The position numbers and the translations under genes were made by a program. The notes below the pieces were generated by a model. It had not been told where the DNA came from. It worked only from the letters and a program-made list of their open reading frames with translations, and searched no databases. A stretch of DNA of 64,000 nt from a bacterium BMS3Bbin13 (GTDB lineage: Bacteria; Pseudomonadota; Gammaproteobacteria; 21-64-14): assembly GCA_002897735.1 (NCBI GenBank), contig BDTW01000021.1, positions 70,813 through 134,812 of the forward strand, written 5' to 3'. Within the stretch, counting starts at the first letter, position 1, and each line of letters opens with the position of its first letter. Shown in pieces: positions 1,677 to 49,173 of this stretch.

Positions 1677-3044
1677 CTAACGCGAAGCCTGCCGGGTCGC
1701 AGCATGCCGGTGGTTGAGCGAGAGCCCCCGCAATACGTTGACGGCCTCGTAGAGCTGGAAGTCCTTGCGCGCGAGCGTGTCCAGCCCCTTGGCGTCCTTG
1801 CGCTCGCGTCGGGCCCGGGCGCGTTGCTTGGCCCGGTCCCGTCCGCCGTTGTGGAAGTGACGCGGCAGATCCTCTTCCTTGATGGGACCGAAGCCGGAGG
1901 AGGACCGTGCGCCGGCGATCTTCAACTGCGGCACCACGATGTCGGGTTCGATCCCCTCCGCCTGGATGGAGCGTCCCGACGGCGTGTAATACAGGGCGGT
2001 GGTGAGCTTCAGCGCCGCACCACCGCTCAACGGCAGGATGGTCTGGACGGAACCCTTGCCGAAGGTGCGCACCCCCAGCAGGATCGCGCGATGATCGTCC
2101 TGCAGGGCGCCGGCGACGATCTCGGAGGCGGAGGCCGAGCCACCGTTGACGAGCACCACCATCGGGGCGCCGTCGAGGACGTCGCCGGGAGTGGCGTCGA
2201 AGTTCATTTGCGAGTCGGGGATGCGCCCCTTGGTGTAAACGATCCGGCCCTTGGTGAGGAATGCATCGGCGACCCCCACCGCCGCGTCCAGGACACCGCC
2301 CGGGTTGTTGCGCAGATCCAGCACCAGCCCCTTGAGCGGGCCGCCGTTCTTCTTCACGAGAGCGCGCACGGCGCGCATCAGACCGCGCGCGGTATGCGTC
2401 TGAAACTGCGTGATGCGCACGTAGCCGATCCCGTCCTCGAGCATCCGGTCCTTGACGCTGCGAACCTTGATGACGGCGCGCGTCAGGGTGAGCTTGATCG
2501 GCTTCTGCGCACCCGCGCGCACGATGGTCAGGGTAATCTTGGAACCGGGCTTGCCGCGCATCCGTTTGACCGCCTGCGTCAGGCTCAGGCCCTTCACCGG
2601 CGTATCGTCGAGAAAGATGATCAGGTCGCCGGGTTCGACACCGGCGCGCTGCGCCGGCGTGTCGTCGATGGGCGTGATGACCTTGACGAACCCGTCCTCC
2701 ATCCCGACTTCGATGCCGAGCCCGCCGAACTCACCGGTGGTGCCGATCTGCAGTTCCTTGAACTGCTGCGGGTCCAGGTAGGCCGAATGCGGATCCAGGC
2801 CCCGCACCATGCCGCGGATCGCATCGTCGAGCAGGACCCGGTCCTTGATCGGCTTCACGTAGTCGGTCTTGATCTTCTGGAACACCGTGGCGAAGGCGTG
2901 CAACTGCCGGAGAGGCAGGCCGCCCGGCGCCCCACCGGGCGCGGCGCCGGAGCGCTCGGCGAACACATTGGGACCCAGGACCACACCCGCGCCCAGGGCT
3001 ACGCCCAGCAGCAGGATCAGGGTACTGCGGATCGGTGCCTTCAT
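1677..3044 (-). CDS. ctpA: Carboxy-terminal processing protease (S41 family, Ctp/Prc)
   Basis: A signal peptide (MKAPIRSTLILLLGVALGAG) is followed by PDZ and S41 motifs (GGLGIEV…, VLVNGGSASASEIVAGALQD). The start is the ATG at 3042-3044. Confidence 0.9.
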   Translation of the reverse strand: MKAPIRSTLILLLGVALGAGVVLGPNVFAERSGAAPGGAPGGLPLRQLHAFATVFQKIKTDYVKPIKDRVLLDDAIRGMVRGLDPHSAYLDPQQFKELQIGTTGEFGGLGIEVGMEDGFVKVITPIDDTPAQRAGVEPGDLIIFLDDTPVKGLSLTQAVKRMRGKPGSKITLTIVRAGAQKPIKLTLTRAVIKVRSVKDRMLEDGIGYVRITQFQTHTARGLMRAVRALVKKNGGPLKGLVLDLRNNPGGVLDAAVGVADAFLTKGRIVYTKGRIPDSQMNFDATPGDVLDGAPMVVLVNGGSASASEIVAGALQDDHRAILLGVRTFGKGSVQTILPLSGGAALKLTTALYYTPSGRSIQAEGIEPDIVVPQLKIAGARSSSGFGPIKEEDLPRHFHNGGRDRAKQRARARRERKDAKGLDTLARKDFQLYEAVNVLRGLSLNHRHAATRQASR

Positions 3045-3161
3045 CGTTCCATGCTCCCGGGACGGCGGTGCGGATTCCATGCCGCCGGCGGAGGGGCGGC
3101 CAGGGAAAGGTACTCTAAATGCGCTCGGTTTGGCTATAGCACGGCCCGGCGCCGGGGCGGT

Positions 3162-4370
3162 TCAGCGGCCCGCGCCCAGGAGCCGGGGCGCGCCCGCGCG
3201 GCACCAACGTGCCGGGTTCACCGGGCGCCCGTCGTGGCGGATCTCGAAGTACAGCCCGGGGCGTACCTCACCGCCGCTGTCCCCCACGGTGGCGACCACC
3301 TCGCCGGGCCTCACCCAGTCGCCGGTCTCCTTGTAGAGTGCTTGGTTGTGTCCGTACAGGCTCATGTAGCCGTCACCGTGATCGATGATCAGCAACAGCC
3401 CGAAACCCCGCAGCCAATCGGCGAACACCACCCGCCCATAGGCGATCGCCCGTACCGGCCGCCCGGCTTGCGCATCGATGACCACGCCGCGCCACTTCAG
3501 CAGTGAGCCCAGGCGCGGCGCGCCGAAACGCGCCACGATCCGGCCCCGCGCCGGCCATGCCAGTCGCCCCTTGAGTCGGGCGAAGGGTCGCCGGGGCCCC
3601 GGGCCCGCCGGGATCCCGGCCGCGGCTTTCTGCAACCTGCCAAGCAGCGCGCGCAGGCGCGCCTCGTCGTGCTTCAGGGCGGCGAGTTCCGCGCCCTTGC
3701 CGTGGATGGCCGCCGCCAACCGCTTCAGTACTGCGCGCCGGGCCGCACGGCGTCGTTCAAAATCCCGTTCCCTGCGCAACCGGACGGCGCGCAGGGCATC
3801 GAGTTCGGTCACCTGGGCGACGATCTCCCGGCGCACCGCGGCGAGCGCGCGCATACGCCGTTCGACCGCCTCGATCTCCTCGGTCCTCGCGCGGTTCAAG
3901 TAGTCGAAGTAGACCAGCGTACGGCCCACCAGCGCGGGATCCTGCTGGTTGAGCAGCAGCTTGAACCGCGGCTGCCCGCCCAGGACATAGGCGGCGCGGA
4001 TCTGGCGTACCAAGGCATGCCGCCCGGCGGCCAGTTCGTCTTCCAGCGTGCGGCGCCGCGCCCGAAGCCGGGCGAGCCGGTCACGGCGCGCGCCCAACCG
4101 CCCCTCGACGGCCCGGCGTCGCTTGGACGCCTGCGCCAGTCCGCGTTCGACGCGACGCAGCTCGGCCTCGACCCGTGCATGGCGGCCGCGCATGGTGCTC
4201 AGGTCTTTGCCGACCGCGTCGATGCGCCGGCGCAGCTGCTCGAGCCGGGCGACGGTCGCACGCGGCGTCGCCTGCGCGGCGGCGTATGCCGCGGGCACGA
4301 GAGCGGACCCCAACGCCCCGGCCAGAAGCAGGCACAGGCAACACGCCGGCAGCACCGTGCGCCGCACCAT
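3162..4370 (-). CDS. envC: Murein hydrolase activator EnvC (coiled-coil plus LytM/M23 peptidase domain)
   Basis: A signal peptide, a long Arg/Glu-rich coiled coil and a C-terminal M23 domain (…DHGDGYMSLYGHN…GDSGG…). It sits in the conserved envC-ctpA arrangement. Confidence 0.85.
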   Translation of the reverse strand: MVRRTVLPACCLCLLLAGALGSALVPAAYAAAQATPRATVARLEQLRRRIDAVGKDLSTMRGRHARVEAELRRVERGLAQASKRRRAVEGRLGARRDRLARLRARRRTLEDELAAGRHALVRQIRAAYVLGGQPRFKLLLNQQDPALVGRTLVYFDYLNRARTEEIEAVERRMRALAAVRREIVAQVTELDALRAVRLRRERDFERRRAARRAVLKRLAAAIHGKGAELAALKHDEARLRALLGRLQKAAAGIPAGPGPRRPFARLKGRLAWPARGRIVARFGAPRLGSLLKWRGVVIDAQAGRPVRAIAYGRVVFADWLRGFGLLLIIDHGDGYMSLYGHNQALYKETGDWVRPGEVVATVGDSGGEVRPGLYFEIRHDGRPVNPARWCRAGAPRLLGAGR

Positions 4371-4451
4371 ATACTTTATCATCACATAATGTTCTAATGA
4401 TGCGATCATTTCGGGTCGACCGGATCCCACCCGGGCGCTCCGAGAGGGCGA

Positions 4452-4784
4452 ATGCCAATGAGCGCCACGAGCGCCACTGAAGGGTTCCTGATCACCCGGG
4501 ATGACGACTTCGAGCGCGCATCCCGGTCGCTGAAGGCGATGTCACACCCCCTGCGGCTCAAGATCCTGTGCACCCTGGGCGAACGCGAGATCAGTGTACA
4601 GGACATCGTCGAGAACGTGGGAACCTCGCAGAGCAACATCTCCCAGCACCTGGCCATCCTGCGCGACAAGGGAATCCTTGCATCGCGAAAGGAGTCGAAC
4701 CGCGTCTACTACCGCGTGGGCGACGCCCGCACCTTGCAGCTGATCGGGATGATGCGCGAGGTGTTCTGCTCCCGCGACCGGTAG
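4452..4784 (+). CDS. ArsR/SmtB-family transcriptional regulator, candidate SqrR/BigR-type persulfide sensor (Cys40 and Cys106)
   Basis: Winged-helix ArsR motifs (SHPLRLKILCTL…VQDIVENVGTSQSNISQHLAILRDKGIL…RVYYRV). Cysteines lie in helix alpha2 and near the C-terminus, about 66 residues apart, as in SqrR C41/C107 and BigR C42/C108. Confidence 0.75.
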   Translation: MPMSATSATEGFLITRDDDFERASRSLKAMSHPLRLKILCTLGEREISVQDIVENVGTSQSNISQHLAILRDKGILASRKESNRVYYRVGDARTLQLIGMMREVFCSRDR

Positions 4785-4876
4785 CGGGGGGTGGTTCCCT
4801 CGCGCATCGTTCCCGGTATAATGCGCGCCGCACCGTGGCCGACGGCCACCTCCCTGGCAGGGTCCGCTGAATCCTC

Positions 4877-5323
4877 ATGCCCCGGATCTCCGAAATCTCC
4901 GAATTCGCAGTCCGGCACTGGTCGCTGTTTCTGGCCCTTGCGGTCGTGCTCGTGCTGCTCGTCGGCAACGAGATCCAACGCTGGCTGCGCGGGCTGAAAA
5001 GGGTCGGACCCGCGGAGGCGGTACGACTGATCAACCGTCGCAACGCCATCATCCTCGACGTGCGCACCGAGGGGGAGTTCAAGGAGGGCCACATCCCCCA
5101 GGCGCGCCACCTCCCACCCGCGTTGCTCGACGAGCAGGTGCGCAAGCTGGAGAAATACAAGGATCGCCCGGTCGTCGTCTACTGTCGTAGCGGCGCGCGG
5201 TCGGCGCGCGTGGGCGGCGTGCTGCGCAAGCATGGTTTTGCGGAGGTGTTCAACCTCGACGGCGGCCTGAGCGCGTGGCAGAGCGCCGACCTCCCCGTTC
5301 ACCGCGGCTCCGCCAAGGATTGA
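4877..5323 (+). CDS. Membrane-anchored single-domain rhodanese (sulfurtransferase)
   Basis: An N-terminal TM helix is followed by a rhodanese domain with the active-site loop VVYCRSGARS. It lies directly downstream of the ArsR-family regulator. Confidence 0.85.
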   Translation: MPRISEISEFAVRHWSLFLALAVVLVLLVGNEIQRWLRGLKRVGPAEAVRLINRRNAIILDVRTEGEFKEGHIPQARHLPPALLDEQVRKLEKYKDRPVVVYCRSGARSARVGGVLRKHGFAEVFNLDGGLSAWQSADLPVHRGSAKD

Positions 5324-5513
5324 ACCGCATTCCCCCCCTCCCGCGGCGATCGCCGGGGCGCACCGCCTTGAATTTATTTCGCCTTGGGTTCCCGGGCTGA
5401 TTACACTATCCTCACTGCGTCCACCGAAGGGGGGGCGTACGCCGAGAGGTCGGCTTGCGGACTCCCGATAATCCCGGCAAGGGGCGTACGGACCCCGACA
5501 CGGAGCGCGCGAC

Positions 5514-5948
5514 ATGGGAAAGACCGTGCACGTGGTCTGCCCCCACTGCGATGCCGTAAATCGCGTGGGCGCGGACAAACCGGCGCTTGATGCGCGTTGC
5601 GGCAAGTGTCACCGCGCCTTGTTCGAGGGTCGTCCGGCGGCCCTGTCGGAAGGGCGTTTCGAGCGCCATCTGCAACGCAGCGACATCCCGCTGGTCGTGG
5701 ACTTCTGGGCCGAATGGTGCGGACCGTGTAAGATGATGGCCCCGCTCTTCGAGGAAGCGGCCCGGCGGCTGGAGCCGCGGGTGCGTTTCGCGAAGGTGGA
5801 CACGGACCGGAATCAGGAACTCGCGGCGCGTTTCGGGATCCGCGGCATTCCGACCCTGATCCTGTTCGAGGGCGGGCGCGAGGCCGACCGCGCCACCGGC
5901 GCGATGGACCTGACACATCTGCTTCAGTGGGTGGAGCGGCACCTCTAA
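5514..5948 (+). CDS. trxC: Thioredoxin 2 (N-terminal zinc-finger thioredoxin)
   Basis: Two N-terminal CxxC pairs (CPHCDA…CGKCH) are followed by the WCGPC thioredoxin active site. Confidence 0.9.
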   Translation: MGKTVHVVCPHCDAVNRVGADKPALDARCGKCHRALFEGRPAALSEGRFERHLQRSDIPLVVDFWAEWCGPCKMMAPLFEEAARRLEPRVRFAKVDTDRNQELAARFGIRGIPTLILFEGGREADRATGAMDLTHLLQWVERHL

Positions 5949-5975: not shown

Positions 5976-6464
5976 ATGAGCGACGACCCCAAGCCACCGA
6001 GCAACGGCGGCGCCAGCCCGCAGCTCACCCTGCACCGGATCTATCTCAAGGACGCCTCCTTCGAAACCCCGGCGGGTCCGCAGGGGTTTACCGGCGATAC
6101 CGCGCCGGAGATCAACATGCAGCTCGGCACCGGCGTCCAGACCCTCGACGAGAACACCTACGAGGTGATACTCAGCGTCACCGTCACCGCGACCGCCGAG
6201 ACCAAGACCGTGTTCCTCGTCGAGATCCAGCAGGCGGGCCTGTTCGACATTCGCGGGTTCGCGGAGGCGGAGATGGGCACGCTGCTCGGGAGCTACTGCC
6301 CGAACGTGCTCTACGCGTTCGCGCGCGAAGCGGTCGCCGACCTCGTCGCCAAGGGCGGTTTCCCGCAATTGCTGCTCGCGCCCGTGAACTTCGACGCCCT
6401 GTACGCGCAACACCTGCAACAACAGACGCACGGGCAAGGCACACCGGCCCCCACGGCGCACTGA
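5976..6464 (+). CDS. secB: Protein-export chaperone SecB
   Basis: QLTLHRIYLKDASFE…NVLYAFAREAVADLVAKGGFPQLLLAPVNFDALY is a canonical SecB. It sits in the conserved trx/grx-secB-gpsA arrangement. Confidence 0.9.
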   Translation: MSDDPKPPSNGGASPQLTLHRIYLKDASFETPAGPQGFTGDTAPEINMQLGTGVQTLDENTYEVILSVTVTATAETKTVFLVEIQQAGLFDIRGFAEAEMGTLLGSYCPNVLYAFAREAVADLVAKGGFPQLLLAPVNFDALYAQHLQQQTHGQGTPAPTAH

Positions 6465-6504: not shown

Positions 6505-7524
6505 ATGGACACGAACCGCCGTAGCGCCGAGACCATCGCGGTTCTGGGCGCGGGCTCCTGGGGCACCGCGCTGGCGGTATCCCTGGCGCGGGACGGCGGA
6601 CCGACCCGGCTGTGGGGGCGGAACGCCGCCCACATGGCGGCCCTGCGCGGCACGCACCGCAATGAACGCTACCTCCCCGACGCGGAGCTGGCGCCGCATG
6701 TGGCGGTCACCGCCGACCTCGGGGCCGCGGTACACGACACCGACCTGATCCTGCTCGCGGTCCCCAGCCACGCCTTCCGCGCCACCCTGCAGGCGCTGTC
6801 CGCGGTGCTCACGGCGCCGGTCCCGGTGACGTGGGCCACGAAGGGCCTGGAACCCGACACCGGCTTCCTCCTCCACGAGGTCGCCGCGCAGGTGCTCGGA
6901 GCCGAGACCGCTACGGCCGTGGTCTCGGGTCCCACCTTCGCGCGCGAGATCGCGGCCGGCCTGCCCGCGGCGCTCACCGTCGCCGCCGCCTCCCCCGAGG
7001 TCGCACGGCGGGTCGCCGCGCGGCTGCATCATGGGGTCCTGCGCGCCTACACCGGCGACGATGTCATCGGGGTGGAGTTGGGCGGCGCGGTGAAAAACGT
7101 CCTGGCGATCGCCGCCGGGATCGCCGACGGCCTGGGCTTCGGCGCCAACACGCGCGCGGCGCTGATCACCCGCGGGCTGGCGGAGATGATCCGCCTGGGT
7201 ACGGCGCTCGGCGCCCGGCGCGAGACCCTCATCGGCCTCGCCGGGCTGGGCGACCTGGTATTGACCTGCACCGACGATCAATCGCGCAACCGCCGCGCCG
7301 GGCTCGCCCTGGGCCGCGGCATGCCGCTCGAGGAGGCGTTGCGCGCGATCGGCCAAGCGGTGGAGGGCGTACCGACCGCGCAGCGGCTGGTGGGGCGCGC
7401 ACGCGACGCCGGCATCGAGATGCCGATCACCGAGCAGGTCTACCGCGTACTGTTCGAGGCACTGGATCCGGGACGGGCGGTGCAGGCGCTGCTCGCGCGC
7501 GAGCCCAAGCCCGAGGATCGGTAA
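6505..7524 (+). CDS. gpsA: NAD(P)H-dependent glycerol-3-phosphate dehydrogenase
   Basis: An N-terminal GAGSWGTALA Rossmann motif; GpsA family throughout. Confidence 0.9.
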   Translation: MDTNRRSAETIAVLGAGSWGTALAVSLARDGGPTRLWGRNAAHMAALRGTHRNERYLPDAELAPHVAVTADLGAAVHDTDLILLAVPSHAFRATLQALSAVLTAPVPVTWATKGLEPDTGFLLHEVAAQVLGAETATAVVSGPTFAREIAAGLPAALTVAAASPEVARRVAARLHHGVLRAYTGDDVIGVELGGAVKNVLAIAAGIADGLGFGANTRAALITRGLAEMIRLGTALGARRETLIGLAGLGDLVLTCTDDQSRNRRAGLALGRGMPLEEALRAIGQAVEGVPTAQRLVGRARDAGIEMPITEQVYRVLFEALDPGRAVQALLAREPKPEDR

Positions 7525-15961: not shown

Positions 15962-16213
15962 CTACCGGTGCCCCTCGTCCGAGACCACCTCGATGGTGAT
16001 GGCGATCTCGCCGGCCGTCTCCCGGATCCCGATCACCCGGTGGCCGTACATCCGGCACCAGGCCGGGATATCGTGGCGCACCCCGGGGTCGGTGCAACGG
16101 ATCTCGAGCCGCTCGCCGGGCGCCAGGTCCCGCACCCGGTCCTGAGTACGGATCACGGGCAGCGGGCAAAGCAGGCGCCGGACATCGAGCACTGAACGGT
16201 TCACAGATACCAC
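15962..16213 (-). CDS. TusA-like sulfur carrier protein (SirA/YedF/YeeD family)
   Basis: LDVRRLLCPLPV carries the CPxP motif with the catalytic Cys; about 83 aa. It overlaps the 3' end of the upstream PP-loop gene by 13 bp. Confidence 0.8.
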   Translation of the reverse strand: MVSVNRSVLDVRRLLCPLPVIRTQDRVRDLAPGERLEIRCTDPGVRHDIPAWCRMYGHRVIGIRETAGEIAITIEVVSDEGHR

Positions 16214-17244
16214 TCCGCGGGGATCTCCTCGGCGGGCAGCGGTGCGACCTCGAGGATGCGCGGCTCCCCCCCGCCGCGCGCCACGGCGACCCGCACCCGC
16301 GGCGACCCGCGTCCCTGGCTAAACCGAGCCGTCAGCCGCGCCGCCAGATCGAGGTCCCCGTCCGAGACCTCGCCGTCCACCAGCACCAACGGTCCCGGGT
16401 GGCTCACCGTGGTGAGGTTCGTGAACTGCTTACGGTAACCCTCGAGGAAGCGGTTCTCCCCCTCCTCGCGCGCGACGATCAGCTTGAAGTGCGGCCGGGG
16501 CCGCAGGTGGCGCCCGACCTTGAGGAGCATGATGTCGTCCAACTCGTAGTCGCGCGCCGCGCGCGCACGCCACAGGTCGGCGAGCTTCGCCGCGTAGCGC
16601 GGGTCGGTCAGGAAACAACACCCCCCGGCCGGCTGGGCGTAGTCGCGGAACCCGTAGTGCTCCGCCAGGGCCATCTGCGGTTTGCGGGTACGCCCGCTGA
16701 AGTCGAGCAGCCGCTCGCGCTCGACCCAGCCCTCGCGTTCGGGCAGGGTGGGTGGCAGGAGCTTGGCGCTCAACGGACGCAACAGCCGGTCGCCGGCGCC
16801 CGACTCGCGCGCGATCACCGGCATCGTATCCCGGCGCTGCGACATGGGCCGCTGGCCGATGACCTCGCCGGTGATCACGAAATCGAACCCGTGCTCCTGC
16901 ATCCACGCATAGGCGCGCCCGACCATGAACCCCTTGCAGTCCAGACAGGGATTCAGGTTATGACCGTACCCGTGTCGGGGATTGAGCACCACGTCCTTGT
17001 AATCGGTGGAGACATCGATGAGGTGCAGCCGGATGCCCAGTTGCTCCGCCACCCACAAGGCGTTGTTGCGTTTCGGGCGGTCGCGATCGCGGCTGCGGAT
17101 GGCGTGCGTGTGCCCCTCCACGCAAAAACCGGTGAAGAAATTGACCCCCTCCACGCGGATCCCCTGATCGAGGATCACGCGCGCGGCGAGCAACGAGTCC
17201 AGTCCGCCGGAGATGAGGGCCACCGCCGTGCGCGGCTCCGCCAT
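16201..17244 (-). CDS. PP-loop ATP pyrophosphatase, divergent MnmA/TrmU-like thiouridylase-family protein
   Basis: N-terminal PP-loop (AVALISGGLDSLLAA), NPCLDCKGFM (compare MnmA NPxxxCN-KF) and a second Cys motif GGCCFLTD (compare MnmA GICFIGE). The start is the ATG at 17242-17244; the 48-codon upstream extension is not credible. Confidence 0.6.
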   Translation of the reverse strand: MAEPRTAVALISGGLDSLLAARVILDQGIRVEGVNFFTGFCVEGHTHAIRSRDRDRPKRNNALWVAEQLGIRLHLIDVSTDYKDVVLNPRHGYGHNLNPCLDCKGFMVGRAYAWMQEHGFDFVITGEVIGQRPMSQRRDTMPVIARESGAGDRLLRPLSAKLLPPTLPEREGWVERERLLDFSGRTRKPQMALAEHYGFRDYAQPAGGCCFLTDPRYAAKLADLWRARAARDYELDDIMLLKVGRHLRPRPHFKLIVAREEGENRFLEGYRKQFTNLTTVSHPGPLVLVDGEVSDGDLDLAARLTARFSQGRGSPRVRVAVARGGGEPRILEVAPLPAEEIPAEWYL

Positions 17245-17467
17245 GGAGATACCCCTATAAAATCCACAGGAAAACGCCGCCGGGCGGCCGAGAAGGAAAG
17301 AGGGAGTGTAGAAGATCCACCGGGTCCGGGCCAGCACTGCACTGCACGCGCCGCTTACGGTGCGAGAGCGGATTCTACGGGGACGGTTCAAAAGAAGGGG
17401 GGAGCGTCACCACCCGGTCATGGGCGGATACCCCCCGGCGTTTGCCGTACAGGAATACGGAGACGGA

Positions 17468-23021: not shown

Positions 23022-25562
<2,541 letters not shown>

Positions 25563-25595
25563 TCACGTGGAACCTTCCGCGGAATGCGAAGGCGG

Positions 25596-26696
25596 CTACA
25601 GCCGCATCGGCATGACGACGTAACGATATGGGCTGTTGCCCTGCCCCTGAACCAGTGCGCTGCTGTTTCCGTCCGTCATCTCCAGCTCGATCCCCTCCGA
25701 TGGGATCGCCGCGAGGGCATCCAAGAGATAAGTGACATTGAACCCGATTTCCAGGTCTCCGCCCCGATATTGCACCTCCAGCTCCTCCTCGGCCTCCTCC
25801 TGCTCCGGATTGTGCGCCTGCATCTTGAGGATGCCGTTTTCCAGCAGGAGTCGTACGCCGCGATATTTCTCGTTGGACAGAATCGAAGTGCGCGTAAGTG
25901 CCTGGCGAAGGGACTCACGGTCCGCCTTCACGATCTTGTCCCCACCACGCGGGATTACACGTTGGTACTCGGGGAAGCGCCCGTCGATCAACTTTGACGT
26001 AAACCACAGGTCCGGCAGCCGGACCTGGATGTGATTGCTGCCGATGGCGATCTCCACCGGGCTATCACGATCCTCCAGCATCCGAAGGAGTTCCTGGATC
26101 CCTTTTCGCGGCACGATTACTTGGACCCGCTGTGGAACTTTCACGGGGACCGGAAGTTCCCCCAGTGCCAGACGATGACCGTCCGTCGCGACGGCACGAA
26201 GCAGCCCATCCTCGACCTCCAACAGCAGGCCGTTCAGGTAATAACGCACATCCTGCAGCGCCATTGCGAAATGGGTGCGGGTGATCAGTTCACGCAATTC
26301 GTGCTGCGGCATGGTGAAGCTTACTGCATCCTGGCCAACCGCCACGTTTGGGAACCCTTCCGCAGGCAATGTGGCCAAGGTAAAACGGCTCCGACCTGAA
26401 CGCACGGTGGCCCGTTCTCCGCTGACGGCGATCTGCAACTCCGCCTGCTCGGGTAACGTTCGGCAGATATCCAGAAACTTGCGCGCCGGCAGGGTGATTT
26501 CTCCGGGGTCCGTAACGGCTATGGCCAAGCGGGCGACGAGCTGCACCTCGAGGTCGGTCGCAGTCAACGTGATTCCGTTGTCATCCCCCTTGAGCAGCAC
26601 ATTCGACAGAATCGGCAGGGTTTGACGGCGCTCGACGACCCCACTGACGACTTGGAGTGGTTTCAGTAGCTGTTCGCGCTGGATAGTGAATTGCAT
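25596..26696 (-). CDS. dnaN: DNA polymerase III beta sliding clamp
   Basis: MQFTIQREQLLKPLQVVSGVVERRQTLPILSNVLL…; 366 aa. Confidence 0.95.
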   Translation of the reverse strand: MQFTIQREQLLKPLQVVSGVVERRQTLPILSNVLLKGDDNGITLTATDLEVQLVARLAIAVTDPGEITLPARKFLDICRTLPEQAELQIAVSGERATVRSGRSRFTLATLPAEGFPNVAVGQDAVSFTMPQHELRELITRTHFAMALQDVRYYLNGLLLEVEDGLLRAVATDGHRLALGELPVPVKVPQRVQVIVPRKGIQELLRMLEDRDSPVEIAIGSNHIQVRLPDLWFTSKLIDGRFPEYQRVIPRGGDKIVKADRESLRQALTRTSILSNEKYRGVRLLLENGILKMQAHNPEQEEAEEELEVQYRGGDLEIGFNVTYLLDALAAIPSEGIELEMTDGNSSALVQGQGNSPYRYVVMPMRL

Positions 26697-26921
26697 CGTG
26701 TCATCCCAAAGAGCCGATGAATCATTATAGTTAAGTTAAATATTAAAGATTATAGTAATAATAGAGCACGTCCTCATCGGTGGACTTGTGGTTTTTCTCT
26801 TTCAATTACAACTCATTACATGAACACAAACCCATTGGATGACCTGGGGACATCACGTGGAGTGGGTGTGGATAAATCAGACGCTCCGAAATCGTCGGAG
26901 GTTATCCACAGGTGTTCCCCA
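26697..26921. promoter_or_regulatory. Candidate oriC / DNA unwinding element: AT-rich island with two inverted perfect DnaA boxes between dnaA and dnaN
   Basis: About 120 bp at roughly 70% AT (tcattatagttaagttaaatattaaagattatagtaataataga) in a 68% GC genome. TGTGGATAA lies at 26867-26875 and TTATCCACA at 26902-26910. Confidence 0.55.
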
Positions 26922-28256
26922 TTATGTGCTCAGGGTTCTATACAGGTTTTGATAGTCTTCCTTGATCCGGTCATCCAGCTCGGTCAGCTCCCGCACCTTT
27001 CGACAGGCATGCAATACCGTGGTATGATCGCGCCCGCCGAAGCTGTCACCGATTTCCGGCAGGCTGTGGTTCGTCAACTCCTTTGCCAACGCCATGGCCA
27101 GCTGGCGGGGGCGGGTGATGGAGCGGCTGCGACGCTTGGACAGCAGGTCGGACACCCGAATCTTATAATACTCCGCTACGGTCTTCTGGATGTTCTCCAT
27201 GGAGACCAGTTTGTTCTGGAGGGCAATCAGGTCCCGGAGGGCCTCCTTGGCAAGATCCACGGTGATCGGGCAGCCGATGAACCGTGCGTTGGCCACGACA
27301 CGGCGCAACGCGCCTTCCAGCTCCCGCACATTGGAACGAACGCGTTTGGCGACGAAGAAGGCCACCTCGTTGGGGAGCTGCACCTTGAACTGTTCCGCTT
27401 TGCTGATCAGGATTGCGACGCGTGTTTCGAGTTCCGGTGGATCAATGGCGACGGTCAGTCCCCAACCGAAGCGGGATTTGAGCCGTTCTTCCAACCCCTT
27501 GACCTCTTTCGGGTAGCGGTCGCAGGTAACGATGACCTGCTGCTGGTTCTCGAGCAGGGCATTGAATGTGTGGAAGAATTCCTCCTGGGAACGCTCCTTG
27601 CCGGCGAAAAATTGAATATCGTCGATGAGCAGGGCGTCGACCGATCGATAAAAACGTTTGAACTCGTTGATCGTGTTATGTTGCAGGGCCTTGATCATGT
27701 CGCCGACAAAACGCTCGGAGTGAAGATAGATGACCCGCGCCGAGGGATTGGTCAGCAGCATCTGATTGCCGACCGCCTGCATGAGATGAGTCTTGCCGAG
27801 ACCGACGCCCCCATAGATGAACAGGGGGTTGTAAGCGCAACCCGGGTTGTCGGCAACCTGCCGGGATGCGGCCCGCGCGAGCTGGTTGGACTTGCCTTCG
27901 ACGAAGCTGTCGAAGACGAACTGCGGGCTGAGAAAGCTGCTGCGCACCACTTCCTGCCCTGCTTGAAAGCGCGGGCCGGCGGCGGGTCGGGCCGCCACAG
28001 GTGTGGGGCGTTGGGTACTGCCGATTTCGAGCAGCACGCGCGCGGAGCGCCCGTGCGTCTGATACGAGACCACCTCGGTGATTTGTCGGTAATAGTGTTC
28101 GCGTACCCAGTCGAGGACGAAGCGGTTTGGTGCGAGCAGGTGCAGGGCATCGTCTTCTTCAACGGCATGAAGCGGACGAATCCAGGTGTTGAACTGCTGC
28201 TCGGACAACTCGCCTTCGAGACGGTGAAGACAACTTTGCCACATTGAACCGACCAC
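26922..28256 (-). CDS. dnaA: Chromosomal replication initiator protein DnaA
   Basis: [25 protein letters not shown]…, the AAA+ Walker A ([10 protein letters not shown]) and a C-terminal DnaA-box-binding domain. Confidence 0.95.
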
Positions 28257-28371
28257 TGAGTCAGGGCCTCTCTTATCGTTGTAGGTGGCTGCCGAGCGGC
28301 GCTGCGGAAGACCAAGTAGTCTACCGCGCCGCGGCCCGTCGATCTATACCCGCGGAGAGCCGACGATTCTA

Positions 28372-28400
28372 TTGACAGCGACAGGACGAACGGAATAATC
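28372..28400 (+). promoter_or_regulatory. Sigma70-type promoter for rpmH
   Basis: TTGACA (28372-28377), a 17-nt spacer, then ATAATC (28395-28400), about 55 bp upstream of the rpmH ATG. Confidence 0.55.
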
Positions 28401-28456
28401 TGCTGTTTTTTCAGCGAAACCTTTTCGACTCCCTCAATTGCTCGCAGGTCCTAGCC

Positions 28457-28591
28457 ATGAAAAGAACTTTCCAGCCCAGTAACCTACGTCGCAAACGGAC
28501 CCACGGGTTCCGCGCGCGCATGAGCACCAAGAACGGACGCAGTATTCTCAAGGCGCGCCGGGCGAAAGGGCGCGCGCGCCTGTCGGCCTGA
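28457..28591 (+). CDS. rpmH: 50S ribosomal protein L34
   Basis: [44 protein letters not shown] (44 aa). It is absent from the ORF track because it is under 60 aa. Confidence 0.95.
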
Positions 28592-28602
28592 CGGCGGGTC
28601 CG

Positions 28603-28965
28603 TTGCGCGCGGGCCGGCGGCGCTTTACCCGCCGCGACCGCTTGACCCGCGAGGAAGAATTCCGGCGCGTGTTTAACCGCCCGCGGCGTCTGCACCATGA
28701 CGCGTGGGTTACCCTCTTCAAGGCGAACGATCTCCGTTACCCGCGGCTCGGCCTGGCCATCTCCCGCAAGAGTGTCCCGACTGCGGTTGCCCGCAACCGG
28801 GTCAAGCGCGTGGTGCGGGAGAGTTTTCGTCTCAACCGGCATCGGCTGGGCGGGTTCGACATCATCATACTGGCGCGCCGCGGACTCGCGCGGCGCGAAA
28901 ACCGCGCCCTGCGCGAGGCACTGGAACGAGATTGGACAACCATCGAACAATGCAAAGACTGCTGA
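28603..28965 (+). CDS. rnpA: Ribonuclease P protein component
   Basis: A basic roughly 120-aa protein with the RnpA motif (…[13 protein letters not shown]…), directly after rpmH. Confidence 0.88.
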
Positions 28966-29183
28966 TCGTCCTGTTGCGCGCCTATCGATACGCGCTGAGT
29001 CCGTATCTGGGTGCACACTGCCGGTTCGCGCCGACGTGTTCCGAGTACGCCCTCATCGCGGTGCAGCGCTACGGCGCGTGGACCGGGACGCGGCTTGCGT
29101 TGCGTCGCCTCGCGCACTGCCACCCTTGGCACGCGGGCGGCTTCGATCCGGTGCCCGAGCGTTGCGAGCATCGGCATGGATAA
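28950..29183 (+). CDS. yidD: Membrane protein insertion efficiency factor YidD
   Basis: [42 protein letters not shown]… is a canonical YidD. It overlaps the rnpA 3' end. Confidence 0.9.
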
Positions 29184-30822
29184 CCAGCGTCTGCTGCTGT
29201 TCATCGCCCTGTCGTTCGTCCTGCTGATGATCTGGCAGGCCTGGATGAAGGACTACGGCAAACACCCGGCCACCCGGGTCGCCACCCCGACCGCTCCGGC
29301 CGCCAATCGTGCCGGACAATCCCCGGTCCCGGAGTTGCCGGCGTCCGCGGCGCGGTCCACCCCGGCGAGCACGCCCTCCGTCGCACCGGCCCTGCCGGCC
29401 GGGCGGGTCATCCGCGTGCGCACCGACGTCCTGGACGTGCAGATCAGCACCGTAGGCGGTGACCTGCGCCGCGCGGTGTTGCCGCGCTTCGCCGTTTCGA
29501 CGGAGCGCCCTCACGAGTCGGTGATCCTCCTGGACGATCGTGGCGAACGTCTGTTCGTCGCCCAGTCCGGCTTGCTCGCGACGGGCAACACGGCACCCAC
29601 GCATCACGCGCGGTTCAGCGCCGCCCGCACCGACTATCGGTTGGCCGATAGTGCCGACCGGTTGCAGGTGCGCCTGCACTGGAGGTCTCCTCAGGGAGTG
29701 AGTGTCGAGAAGATCTACACCTTCCACCGCAACAGCTACGTGGTGCAACTGCAGGAAGTGGTGCACAACGCCGGGGACAAGCCCTGGAGGGCGCGCCCGT
29801 ACGAGCAGTTGCTGCGCCACCGCCCGCGCAAAGGCAGCTCGCTGTTCCTCCATACCTATGTGGGGGGCGCCCTGTACTCGCCGCAGGACAAATTCCAGAA
29901 GGTCACCTTCAAGGACATGTCCAAGCACAGCCTGAGCCGCAGCGTGACCGGCGGCTGGGTCGCCATGGACCAGCACTACTTCCTGGCTACGTGGATCCCC
30001 CCGCTCAAGGCACCTCAGGACTTCTACACCAAGGCGCTGCCCGGCGATCGCTACGTGATCGGGACCCTGGGCGGTGCGCTCGAGGTGGCCCCCGGACAGA
30101 CGCGGACCGTCGCCGTGCGGCTCTACATCGGTCCCAAGCTCCAGGAGCGGCTCGTGGGCGTCGCCCCCGGCCTGGACCTGACGATCGACTATGGCTACCT
30201 CACCGTGCTCGCGAAGCCCATCTTCGCGATGATGCGGTGGATCGAAGAGCTGGTCGGCAACTGGGGCTGGGCGATCGTGATCCTGACGATCCTGATCAAA
30301 CTCGCCTTCTACAAGCTCTCCGAGACCAGCTATCGCTCCATGGCGAACATGCGCCGCCTGTCGCCGCGCCTGAAGGCCCTCAAGGAACGATACGGAGACG
30401 ACCGACAGCGCCTCAATCAGGCGATGATGGAGCTCTACAAAAAGGAGAAGATCAACCCGCTCGGCGGATGTCTGCCGATCGTGGTGCAGATCCCGGTGTT
30501 CATCGCCCTCTACTGGGTGCTGCTGGAGAGCATGGAGCTGCGCCAAGCGCCGTTCGTGTTATGGATCCACGACCTCTCGGCGCCGGACCCCTATTTCGTG
30601 CTGCCCATACTCAACGGCATCACCATGCTCATGCAACAGCGTCTGAATCCCTCGCCGCTGGATCCGATGCAGCAAAAGATCATGATGATCATGCCCATCA
30701 TGTTCTCCGTGTTCTTCGCCTTCTTCCCCGCCGGACTGGTGCTCTACTGGCTGGTGAACAACCTCCTGTCGATTTCCCAGCAGTGGATGATCACACGGCG
30801 CGTGGAGAGGGGCGCGAAGTAG
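29176..30822 (+). CDS. yidC: Membrane protein insertase YidC
   Basis: [23 protein letters not shown]… plus the conserved C-terminal TM core (…[29 protein letters not shown]…). The start is the ATG at 29176. Confidence 0.95.
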
Positions 30823-44595: not shown

Positions 44596-48270
<3,675 letters not shown>

Positions 48271-48363
48271 AGGCGGGAGGGGAAGCGGTGTGTCGGGCTC
48301 GTTCGCCGCGGGTCGCCGGATCGGCTTCACGTCCGGCTCGAGGCACGCCACTATACCATGGGT

Positions 48364-48387
48364 CGTTTCCGCCCCGGGGCGGAAACG
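48364..48387. promoter_or_regulatory. 24-bp perfect palindrome in the divergent metH-ccmA intergenic region
   Basis: CGTTTCCGCCCCGGGGCGGAAACG is its own reverse complement. It is followed by a second inverted repeat, GGATCgtttcggGATCC. Confidence 0.4.
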
Positions 48388-48513
48388 GATCGTTTCGGGA
48401 TCCGCATCGCGGCGTCCGGGAACGGGGTTCATGTTACACTGTGCCGCCCCGGGCGGCGTCCATGCATCTGGCTGCATCTGGCGACGGCGGGAACCGTTGC
48501 GGACAAAGCCACC

Positions 48514-49173
48514 GTGGATGACAGACCTGAGATCGCGGCGCTTGCGCGGCGTGCCCCCCGCCTGGAGGCGCGCGCGCTGGAGTGCGTGCGTAACGATCGC
48601 GTCCTGTTTCACGATCTGGACGCCGCCCTGGAGCCGGGGCAGGTCCTGCAGGTCGAAGGTCCCAACGGTTGCGGAAAGACCAGCCTGTTGCGGATCCTGT
48701 GCGGTCTGAGCCTGCCCGGCGCCGGCGAGGTATATTGGGGCGATGCCCCGCTCCCGGAGGTGCGCGCCGAGTACTACGAGGCCCTCGCCTATGTCGGCCA
48801 TCGGCACGGGGTCAAGGGGGAGTTGACACCGATAGAGAATCTGCGCTTTCATCGGGCGCTCGCGGGCGGGACACCCGACCGGGTCCCGGGCGACGCCTTG
48901 GCGCACCTCGGCCTGGAGGGCTTCGAGGACGTTCCGTGCCGCACCCTCTCCGAGGGACAGCGCCGGCGCGTGGCGCTGGCGCGGCTGCTCATGACCCGGC
49001 GACCGCTATGGATTCTGGACGAACCCCTGACGGCCCTGGACCGCTCCGGCGTGGCGGTGGTGGAAGGGCTGATTCGGGATCACGCCCGATCGGGGGGCAT
49101 GGTAATGATCACTACTCACCAGGCGATCCGGCTCGAGGGCTGCGTGCTCGGCCGGTTGCGGCTCGGCGGGTGA
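48514..49173 (+). CDS. ccmA: Cytochrome c biogenesis heme exporter ATP-binding protein CcmA
   Basis: …[46 protein letters not shown]…[14 protein letters not shown]…LWILDEP… is colinear with E. coli CcmA. A GTG start at 48514 is assumed. Confidence 0.85.

Follow-up and report, generated by a model that had tools for sequence, protein, structure and literature searches.

A strongly conserved two-cysteine ArsR-family regulator heads a yibN gene cluster and is a candidate sulfane-sulfur sensor

The gene at 4458-4784 of the window, by which we mean the whole 64,000-nucleotide stretch of DNA that was analysed, encodes a regulator that is, by sequence, an ArsR protein of the two-cysteine clade formed by BigR, SqrR, HlyU, and YgaV, and sequence comparison places it in a very strongly conserved branch of this known sensor family. 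It lies ahead of yibN, in what gene content and order identify as the conserved gpmM-envC / yibN-grxC-secB-gpsA-trmL neighborhood with an extra regulator. We think it probable, with some reservation, that the regulator is an autoregulated repressor of the yibN operon that is released by sulfane sulfur. The features of the locus are:

1677-3080: ctpA, after the envC-like gene
3162-4370, minus strand: divergent envC-like gene for an M23 murein-hydrolase activator (profile searches)
4378-4401, plus strand: candidate operator on the arsR promoter, ATCATCACATAATGTTCTAATGAT (conservation, dyad symmetry)
4458-4784, plus strand: arsR-family gene for a regulator of the two-cysteine BigR/SqrR/HlyU/YgaV type (profile searches, alignments, conservation)
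4743-4817, plus strand: long RNA/DNA hairpin covering the final 14 arsR codons and the stop codon, without a U-tract (inverted repeat I1)
4817-4822, plus strand: perfect TATAAT in the arsR-rhodanese spacer, within a conserved 19-nt block
4877-5323, plus strand: YibN orthologue, an N-terminally membrane-anchored single-domain rhodanese (profile search, alignment)
5354-5380, plus strand: weak terminator-like hairpin with a T-rich tail, 3' of the rhodanese gene (terminator scan)
5514-5948, plus strand: trxC, thioredoxin 2, with zinc ribbon C9/C12/C29/C32 and active site WC69GPC72 (NCBIfam/Pfam)
5976-6464, plus strand: secB (profile searches, synteny)
6505-7524, plus strand: gpsA (homology and synteny with E. 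coli gpsA)

The longer version of the arsR reading frame (4452-4784) encodes 110 amino acids, with the cysteines at positions 40 and 106. Translation probably begins at the second ATG (4458), which gives 108 amino acids with Cys38 and Cys104, because the first ATG is missing from the closest relative, the public protein has 108 amino acids, and the Shine-Dalgarno spacing is better. The product scored above the curated cut-offs of Pfam HTH_5 (PF01022; 49.5 bits, cut-off 22) and of the NCBIfam ArsR/SmtB subfamily NF033788 (86.1 bits, cut-off 55), and is by these profiles a member of the ArsR/SmtB winged-helix family. It contains exactly two cysteines, in KILCTL and VFCSRDR; alpha3 has neither a cysteine nor a CXC motif, and alpha5 has no histidine and no metal site. 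The first-pass annotation had described a 110-amino-acid ArsR/SmtB protein with this pair and no metal motif, with which the open reading frame and the sequence agree, except that the start is probably at 4458. In an AlphaFold2 model, a monomer from a shallow alignment with a mean pLDDT of 65 that was read for secondary structure alone, Cys40 lies within alpha2 (33-42) and Cys106 immediately after alpha5 (92-105).

The closest solved relatives of the regulator are BigR, SqrR, HlyU, and YgaV (E 2e-19 to 1e-13). HMMER alignments with the solved structures were gapless over 87-95 residues, and HMMER and BLAST alignments placed both cysteines in register with BigR C42/C108, SqrR C41/C107, and the pairs of HlyU and YgaV, so that the earlier proposal of SqrR- and BigR-like spacing was borne out and extends to the other two. 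Identity to these four characterised sensors is 35-40%; the SSN threshold for the two-cysteine RSS-sensing ArsR clade ("SSN cluster 4") is approximately 40% (PMC10054925). On exposure to persulfide donors, characterised members of the clade acquire a tetrasulfide within one protomer and no longer bind DNA (10.1101/2020.03.22.001966; PMC10054925; PMC12423496). The regulator is not a BigR orthologue, because its score against the NCBIfam BigR equivalog NF040642 was 81 bits, under the cut-off of 155. The public record of the protein is already titled "biofilm growth-associated repressor", a similarity-transferred name that is corrected here, the BigR model not having been passed. CstR, which had also been named as an alignment partner, is a non-homologous protein of the CsoR family.

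The alpha2 cysteine is kept in all 120 cluster representatives and the C-terminal cysteine in all 117 that could be scored, far above chance, and the recognition helix GTSQSNISQHLAILRDK is identical in 119 of the 120. Carriers comprise at least 573 species-level genomes, mostly of sulfur-oxidising Gammaproteobacteria; cultured examples are Thiohalobacter thiocyanaticus, Allochromatium warmingii, and A. vinosum. Across the best 80 of these genomes, identity is 76-89% for the regulator, approximately 56% for GpsA, and approximately 45% for YibN; these loci were chosen by similarity to the regulator, and its apparent conservation is therefore inflated.

In all 78 related loci in which the contig permits the comparison, yibN directly follows arsR on the same strand, at a median distance of 83 bp and a minimum of -3 bp. 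The gene downstream of arsR in the window is, by sequence, an orthologue of E. coli YibN, with 35% identity over 142/148 residues including the N-terminal anchor (E 6e-29). It scored 89.5 bits against Pfam Rhodanese, and it has an N-terminal hydrophobic helix at approximately residues 15-31 and a canonical active-site loop, C103-RSGARS. The earlier description of an anchored, single-domain rhodanese directly downstream of arsR therefore stands, while its description as a typical member of a SqrR/BigR regulon does not, the protein being YibN. A Cys-x2-Gly-x2-(Ser/Thr/Ala) catalytic loop, mostly CRSGxRS, is present in every one of the 78 arsR-linked YibN proteins. In E. coli YibN, by contrast, the canonical catalytic residue is replaced by Asp (DGSGMQC), and the cysteine sits on the far side of the loop (PMC12282094). 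It has been reported that E. coli YibN interacts with YidC (PMC11997395) and that its loss results in wider cells (PMC11997395; PMC12282094). In the window, yidC is 24 kb from the locus.

The zinc-finger thioredoxin 2 that had been noted after the rhodanese was confirmed by the TrxC equivalog NF008229 (145.7 bits, cut-off 125) and Zn_ribbon_Thio2 (PF21352; 34.4 bits, cut-off 27.1). Here trxC fills the slot held by grxC or grxC-trxC in relatives, grxC and gpmM both being missing from the window. Most loci have a redoxin gene after yibN (GrxC in 37, TrxC in 23); the redoxin is variable, or absent, as in loci L002 and L082. The divergent gene also varies by lineage, being gpmM in 58 loci and envC in the window and in L082. 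No sqr, pdo/blh, TauE, YeeE, or sulfur transporter gene was found near the locus, and no metal transporter gene beside arsR. The label of a reactive-sulfur detoxification unit, which the first-pass annotation had given to these genes, is not justified, because the locus is the conserved housekeeping neighborhood of yibN and lacks sqr, pdo/blh, TauE, and YeeE. It may be added that secB and gpsA are housekeeping genes, whose sole dependence on a stress signal is unlikely. Our literature search found no paper tying an ArsR regulator to yibN, secB, or gpsA.

Upstream of arsR, an AT-rich dyad over the -10 box is likely, from its sequence and conservation, to be the operator. Its half-sites are ATCAT (4378-4382), ATAAT (4386-4390), and ATGAT (4397-4401); ATCAT-N14-ATGAT is a perfect inverted repeat, and ATAAT forms part of the -10 hexamer CATAAT (4385-4390). 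The dyad is the single match to ATYAT-N3-ATRAT in the 64-kb window and falls within one of nine AT islands of a sequence with 67% GC. It is homologous to an element of related loci, ATTATTGTATAATGTTTTa.TaAT, which was found in 52-54 of 80 loci, in each case on the arsR strand and 55-100 nt upstream of the ATG; the 590 kb of these loci contain no other copy. The conserved element spans approximately 45 bp with the consensus ATTATTGTATAATGTTTTAGTAATGAA, carries near-maximal information over ATTATTGTATAATGTTTT, and contains nested dyads around a perfect TATAAT. Exact metagenome matches with conserved flanks were all upstream of arsR, on contigs of up to 72% GC. At E. coli yibN, where there is no arsR, the element is absent. 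We infer that the regulator binds this candidate operator.

The box known for SqrR and YgaV, ATTC-N8-GAAT, had no match at the locus with up to one mismatch allowed, and the operator assignment therefore leans on conservation alone; elsewhere in the window this box matched 8 times, as compared with 9.9 expected by chance. The conserved element is also simply the promoter of arsR itself, and its association with arsR is therefore partly trivial. An exact 18-mer scan of metagenomes revealed no further regulon targets; the 36 sites without arsR that it returned were taken as chance matches because their contigs have 20-48% GC and no flank similarity. The palindrome TTAGAC-N3-GTCTAA was also rejected as an operator, since it follows gpmM rather than arsR and is absent from the window.

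The operator had previously been expected in the arsR-rhodanese spacer (4785-4876), where no conserved ArsR-type inverted repeat was found, the conserved dyad being upstream of arsR instead. The spacer holds a 7-bp repeat, CGCGCAT-N13-ATGCGCG, which is not kept in the more distant relative L082, and short GC palindromes; no inverted repeat or k-mer recurs among the spacers of the 80 loci. The hairpin over the arsR stop (MFE z-score -2.75; 1 of 200 shuffles equally stable) could be a transcript 3' end, a stabiliser, or an attenuator; in L082 this position is taken by another hairpin. The 19-nt block CGGTATAATGCGCGCCGCA, which holds the spacer TATAAT, is identical in L082, where the remainder of the spacer is not conserved. 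This TATAAT is possibly a second, lineage-specific promoter of the rhodanese gene; it was not called by the promoter scan because no -35 box fits. The terminator-like site after the rhodanese gene is one of 2 in the region, as compared with 1.3 expected, which alone is not significant. Among known RNA elements, the leader and spacers gave one sub-threshold match to a cobalamin riboswitch (E 0.35) and no other. The hairpin, the spacer TATAAT, and the terminator-like site could uncouple the downstream genes from the regulated promoter in the lineage of the window.

In the mechanism that we propose, the regulator would be a repressor that works as a homodimer and has the winged-helix fold of the two-cysteine ArsR clade. 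The reduced form would bind the AT-rich dyad on the -10 box of its own promoter and thereby limit arsR transcription and the read-through into the yibN-type rhodanese gene and probably into trxC-secB-gpsA. A rise in sulfane sulfur in the cytoplasm, as persulfides or polysulfides, would lead to a tri- or tetrasulfide bridge between Cys38(40) and Cys104(106) within one protomer, and the bridged dimer would leave the DNA, resulting in derepression of the operon. The cell would thereby gain a sulfurtransferase that is anchored in the membrane and catalytically competent, and with it a thioredoxin or glutaredoxin to accept or reduce the persulfide of this enzyme. The effector chemistry, the binding to the dyad, repression rather than activation, and the extent of the regulated transcript are what we infer here.

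The same two cysteines might instead constitute a general thiol-oxidation switch, forming a simple disulfide under oxidative (disulfide or peroxide) stress, with induction of TrxC or GrxC for thiol repair as its purpose, and we regard this as unlikely. The redoxin that follows yibN in most loci would fit such a switch, as would the disulfide reported for X. fastidiosa BigR, as quoted in PMC9774250, and the ArsR-family protein RexT, which senses H2O2 and controls a thioredoxin (PMC8960804). However, the cysteines of RexT are two proximal residues in alpha3 and not an alpha2/alpha5 pair (PMC10054925), SqrR and HlyU, which have the same pair as the present regulator, are unreactive to H2O2 and disulfides (10.1101/2020.03.22.001966; PMC10054925), and the invariant partner of arsR is the rhodanese gene rather than the redoxin gene. 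A classical ArsR/SmtB metal or metalloid sensor is highly improbable, since generic matches alone speak for it (NCBIfam "metalloregulator ArsR/SmtB" at 86 bits, and weak, sub-threshold matches to CmtR and others). The protein lacks the ligands for metal sensing, and this reading was rejected for that reason: alpha3 has no CXC, alpha5 has no His/Asp/Glu cluster, and the only two cysteines are approximately 66 residues apart. Furthermore, no metal transporter adjoins the gene, and none of the best relatives is a metal sensor, all of them being dithiol sensors.

A different question is whether the downstream operon is the main target at all. HlyU, which is 38% identical to the regulator and has a similar recognition helix (QSxxSQHLAxLR), is an activator (PMC10054925), the element sits between divergently oriented genes, in the window 8 nt from the envC-like start codon, and the promoter and hairpin of the spacer may insulate yibN. 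The regulator could therefore be an HlyU-like activator or anti-silencer, it could repress the divergent promoter of gpmM or of envC-ctpA, or it could act on distant genes, the adjacency of arsR and yibN being merely shared history. We assign a low probability to these possibilities: the dyad on the -10 hexamer of the arsR strand is in the classical position of a repressor, the divergent gene differs by lineage while the arsR-yibN pair is constant, and many loci have spacers of only -3 to 40 bp, which suggests that arsR and yibN are co-transcribed.

The locus defines a large, unusually conserved branch of the persulfide-sensor family with an invariant recognition helix, and ties this candidate sensor to yibN. 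Since a concrete operator is predicted, DNA binding and chemistry are directly testable. Most of the non-enteric YibN proteins examined appear from their sequences to be canonical, Cys-bearing sulfurtransferases under a sulfur-type regulator, which suggests that a sulfur-transfer role for YibN is worth seeking. A broader reading, which we offer only tentatively and consider rather doubtful, is that in sulfur-oxidising Gammaproteobacteria a near-invariant persulfide sensor couples the cytoplasmic sulfane-sulfur load to a membrane-biogenesis operon (YibN, SecB, GpsA, and a thiol reductase), that YibN was ancestrally a membrane-anchored sulfurtransferase, and that enterobacterial YibN is derived, having lost the canonical catalytic cysteine and the sensor. 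If so, YibN would act on the inner side of the membrane, where it would take in sulfane sulfur or remove it and pass it to Grx or Trx, in an operon that joins this partner of the YidC insertase in E. coli to the export chaperone SecB and to GpsA, which acts in phospholipid precursor synthesis.

The E. coli yibN-grxC-secB-gpsA cluster shares the gene order and neighbors of the present locus, with gpmM-envC divergent and trmL downstream (PMC11997395), but it has no arsR at its head. BigR of Xylella, Agrobacterium, and Acinetobacter is the best solved relative of the regulator (3pqj, E 2e-19, approximately 35% identical, C42/C108 in register) and controls blh, for a sulfurtransferase/persulfide dioxygenase, and transporters (PMC5823870; PMC7315123). 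The present locus lacks targets of this type, having no blh or persulfide dioxygenase gene and no sulfite or sulfur transporter gene. SqrR of Rhodobacter capsulatus aligns with the regulator over 88 residues without gaps at 40% identity, C41/C107 in register (E 1e-14), and is the structural paradigm of tetrasulfide sensing, in which the sulfur atoms of the alpha2 and alpha5 cysteines are 7 A apart (10.1101/2020.03.22.001966). SqrR differs in controlling sqr and photosynthesis genes as a global regulator, through an ATTC-N8-GAAT operator, and its proposed heme-contact Met38 is Lys here (PMC12344995). Vibrio HlyU has the same Cys38/Cys104 numbering if the start is at 4458, and shares with the present regulator a similar alpha4 helix and an AT-rich operator, which is a candidate here, but it activates toxin genes by lifting H-NS silencing and has no linked rhodanese operon (PMC10054925).

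The nearest known design is the E. coli ygaVP operon, where the gene of a two-cysteine ArsR regulator is likewise immediately followed, in the same orientation, by that of a single-domain rhodanese with a membrane anchor. Identity to the regulator is 39% for YgaV, with both cysteines aligned; the rhodanese domain of YgaP is 32% identical. YgaV is an autorepressor with a site over its promoter, from which sulfide or polysulfide releases it by way of a tetrasulfide (PMC9774250; PMC12344995). However, the YgaV site resembles ATTC-N8-GAAT, which is absent at the present locus, and YgaP, which is anchored by C-terminal helices, is not YibN. In contrast to ygaVP, an isolated two-gene unit, the present regulator heads the secB-gpsA cluster, and its subfamily is far more conserved.

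The three open reading frames named in the first-pass annotation are present in the window, where they lie among the following features.

1677-3080, divergent from arsR: ctpA
3162-4370, minus strand, divergent from arsR: gene for an envC-like M23 protein
4378-4401, plus strand: diverged copy of the candidate operator element, ATCATCACATAATGTTCTAATGAT
4452-4784, plus strand: arsR, ArsR/SmtB-family winged-helix regulator (Pfam HTH_5, NCBIfam ArsR/SmtB subfamily)
4877-5323, plus strand: single-domain rhodanese with a hydrophobic N-terminal helix and the loop C103-RSGARS (Pfam, alignment)
5514-5948, plus strand: TrxC with the thioredoxin-2 zinc ribbon (TrxC equivalog model, 145.7 bits, cut-off 125)
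5976-6464, plus strand: secB, 3' of trxC
6505-7524, plus strand: gpsA, 3' of secB

The regulator scored above the cut-offs of both Pfam HTH_5 (49.5 bits) and the NCBIfam ArsR/SmtB subfamily (86.1 bits), and it has two cysteines only, in KILCTL and VFCSRDR; alpha3 lacks Cys and alpha5 lacks His. Its translation probably starts at the second ATG (4458), because the first (4452) is missing in the closest relative (locus L001, protein 98% identical), the public record is 108 aa long, and a GAGAGGG lies 9 nt 5' of 4458 versus just 3 nt 5' of 4452; we therefore number the cysteines Cys38 and Cys104 (Cys40 and Cys106 from the first ATG). Solved relatives are BigR (3pqj, E 2e-19), SqrR (6o8l, E 1e-14), V. 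vulnificus HlyU (E 2.5e-14), YgaV (3cuo, E 6e-14) and V. cholerae HlyU (E 1e-13), with identities of 40% to SqrR, 39% to YgaV, 38% to HlyU and 35% to BigR. The alignments are gapless over 87-95 residues with both cysteines in register, so that the proposed equivalence to the SqrR/BigR pair holds as far as sequence can tell. The alpha2 cysteine is found in 120/120 cluster representatives of the regulator and the C-terminal one in each of the 117 that were scorable, and the core has these two cysteines alone in 113 of the 120. A low-confidence AlphaFold2 model (pLDDT 65) gave the expected order a1-a2-a3-a4-b1-b2-a5, with Cys40 inside alpha2 and Cys106 directly after alpha5. Assignment as a BigR orthologue was rejected (81 bits, equivalog cut-off 155), and the public name "biofilm growth-associated repressor" is a transfer by similarity. 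Perfect 9-nt tandem duplications occur in the unstructured N-terminal parts of the regulator (4460-4477, GAGCGCCAC twice, giving SAT-SAT) and of the rhodanese (4886-4903, ATCTCCGAA twice, giving ISE-ISE).

The downstream genes encode an anchored single-domain rhodanese and then a zinc-finger thioredoxin 2, just as claimed. Scanning a single genome per species gave at least 573 that encode a close relative of the regulator, and the best 80 of these carriers are without exception Gammaproteobacteria, most of them sulfur oxidisers; among them are Chromatiales, Ectothiorhodospiraceae, Thiogranum, Thiohalobacter, Allochromatium, Thiohalocapsa, Sulfuriflexus, Thioalkalispiraceae, Thiotrichaceae and Parabeggiatoa, plus Competibacteraceae. 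The related loci read arsR-rhodanese-(grxC)-(trxC)-secB-gpsA, divergent from gpmM-envC-ctpA and followed by trmL on the opposite strand, and the rhodanese gene follows arsR in 78/78 loci whose contig reaches that far. This is the neighbourhood of E. coli gpmM-envC-yibQ and yibN-grxC-secB-gpsA ... trmL with one gene, arsR, added. The window rhodanese and E. coli YibN share 35% identity along their full length including the anchor, and E. coli yibN, grxC, secB and gpsA form a single operon (PMC11997395). At this site the window lineage retains trxC and no longer has gpmM or grxC, while a related Chromatiales 21-64-14 locus (L082) has neither redoxin.

The first-pass annotation had further read the genes as a detoxification unit. 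Because neither sqr nor a gene for a persulfide dioxygenase or sulfur transporter was found near the arsR locus, and because the remaining window genes are housekeeping genes (ubiB, DJ-1, ntrBC, glnA, glyQS, gyrB-dnaN-dnaA, yidC, metH), the locus is not a detoxification island; it is the yibN-secB-gpsA neighbourhood. Origin-proximal gyrB, dnaN and dnaA (minus strand) lie within 23022-30822, with AT-rich islands at 26708-26831 adjoining the dnaA 3' end, between dnaA and dnaN. The yidC gene (29011-30822, plus strand) is 24 kb from yibN, and thus YidC, a partner of YibN in E. coli, is not linked. Elsewhere in the window, a 396-aa protein (16201-17391, minus strand) that matched no NCBIfam family has a PP-loop ATPase region, weakly matching tRNA_Me_trans and ThiI, and an NFACT-R_2 RNA-binding domain at its C-terminus, and a MetH-like frame of 1436 aa (44596-48906, minus strand), whose first Pfam domain begins at residue 225, has either an over-extended start or an N-terminal extension.

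The regulator is much better conserved than its neighbours: median identity to the window protein over the 80 loci is 84% for ArsR (range 76-89%), 59% for CtpA, 56% for GpsA, 55% for TrxC, 50% for SecB, 45% for YibN and 42% for EnvC, a contrast inflated because the loci were chosen by similarity to the regulator. Despite this bias, a small regulator with 80% identity where GpsA has 56% is unusual. The DNA-recognition stretch GTSQSNISQHLAILRDK is unchanged in 119/120 representatives. In all 78 linked YibN proteins the catalytic loop fits Cys-x2-Gly-x2-(Ser/Thr/Ala), in most cases as CRSGxRS. At the position of this Cys, the YibN of E. coli has Asp (DGSGMQC), and its displaced cysteine has been noted before (PMC12282094).

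An operator had been expected in the arsR-rhodanese spacer (4785-4876), where we found no element common to the relatives; of the earlier interpretation, then, the cysteine pair was upheld and the detoxification unit and spacer operator were not. Upstream of arsR lies a conserved block of ~45 bp, cttCtcaaacggt.tATTATTGTATAATGTTTTa.TaATaAAgGgca, with near-maximal information content over ATTATTGTATAATGTTTT and a perfect TATAAT within the dyad ATTAT-N3-ATAAT, itself inside a wider dyad, ATTAT-N14-nTAAT. It is present in 52-54 of the 80 loci, every time on the arsR strand and 55-100 nt 5' of the ATG, and was not found elsewhere in their 590 kb of flanking DNA. It is also absent upstream of yibN in E. 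coli, which has no arsR there. Scanning metagenomes for an exact 18-mer of the element gave 40 sites with arsR downstream, on contigs of 44-72% GC sharing extended flanks, and 36 sites without arsR, which we regard as chance matches because all are on contigs of 20-48% GC and their flanks are unrelated. The window copy, within one of nine AT islands in this 67% GC DNA, is the single match to ATYAT-N3-ATRAT in 64 kb, and its form is common to L001 and L082. Its outer half-sites (ATCAT/ATGAT) are a perfect inverted repeat in which, relative to the consensus, a T-to-C change on the left is paired with an A-to-G change on the right; as a single lineage-level event, these matched changes are only suggestive. 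Placement over the -10 box is standard for the dyad of an autorepressor, and we infer that the regulator binds this one; YgaV likewise binds its own promoter over the -10 position (PMC9774250).

In the window, where gpmM is gone from between the envC-like gene and arsR, the envC-like start codon (complement of 4368-4370) is 8 nt from the candidate operator, which in this lineage must therefore be overlapped by the promoter of envC-ctpA. A second conserved palindrome, TTTAGAC-N3-GTCTAAC, is present ~50 bp before the start of gpmM (~3822 and ~3697 in the related loci L002 and L036) in 36 of 58 loci with gpmM and in none of the ~21 that lack this gene; it was not found in the window, even when one mismatch was allowed. 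The V. cholerae HlyU operator (TTCAGACTAAA) includes a part similar to the half-site of this palindrome.

By homology with the clade, it is reasonably probable that the regulator is a repressor released by sulfane sulfur. The reduced dimer would occupy the promoter dyad upstream of arsR, sulfane sulfur would bridge Cys38 and Cys104, and release would raise arsR and the anchored sulfurtransferase YibN, together with Grx/Trx, SecB and GpsA where their genes are co-transcribed. It is well established biochemically that a GlpE-type rhodanese can pair with a thioredoxin or glutaredoxin, which accepts or reduces its persulfide. Persulfide or polysulfide donors react with characterised clade members that have the same alpha2/alpha5 cysteine pair, H2O2 and disulfides do not, and the product is an intraprotomer tetrasulfide, after which DNA is released (10.1101/2020.03.22.001966; PMC10054925; PMC12423496; PMC12344995). 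A switch that responds generally to disulfide or peroxide stress, with TrxC/GrxC as its targets, would suit the neighbouring redoxin genes and fits poorly with that chemistry, and we consider it unlikely. It is also improbable that the true target lies elsewhere, with the protein acting as an HlyU-like activator or on the divergent promoter; the resemblance to HlyU could be read in this way, and the element keeps to the arsR strand. Metal sensing was rejected as very unlikely because the regulator lacks the metal ligands.

Of the proposed steps, control of such a sulfane-sulfur-released repressor over trxC-secB-gpsA is the least certain. The arsR-yibN spacers are short (median 83 bp, minimum -3 bp), and co-transcription is therefore likely in general. 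In the window, a 75-nt hairpin (4743-4817; z -2.75; equally stable shuffles 1/200; U-tract absent) covers the last 14 codons and stop of arsR; the hairpin found at the matching position in L082 is shorter and of another kind. A perfect TATAAT (4817-4822) follows in the spacer, within a 19-nt block, CGGTATAATGCGCGCCGCA (~4810-4830), that is identical in L082 while the rest of the spacer has diverged, and that looks like a lineage-specific promoter of the rhodanese gene. A weak terminator-like site lies 3' of the rhodanese gene. Given these features, the rhodanese gene of the window lineage may additionally be transcribed from a promoter of its own.

A search of the accessible literature found no paper joining an ArsR regulator to yibN, secB or gpsA. 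The chief value of the locus is that it offers a link, open to testing, from persulfide sensing to YibN, whose role has yet to be explained. Among known systems the nearest in design is E. coli ygaVP, in which a two-cysteine ArsR sensor is likewise paired with an anchored rhodanese and which is autorepressed and derepressed by sulfide. In contrast to ygaVP, whose rhodanese has a C-terminal anchor, the rhodanese here is YibN, anchored at its N-terminus, the candidate operator has a different sequence, and the regulator stands at the head of an operon with housekeeping roles in export and lipid synthesis, in a system that is strongly conserved.
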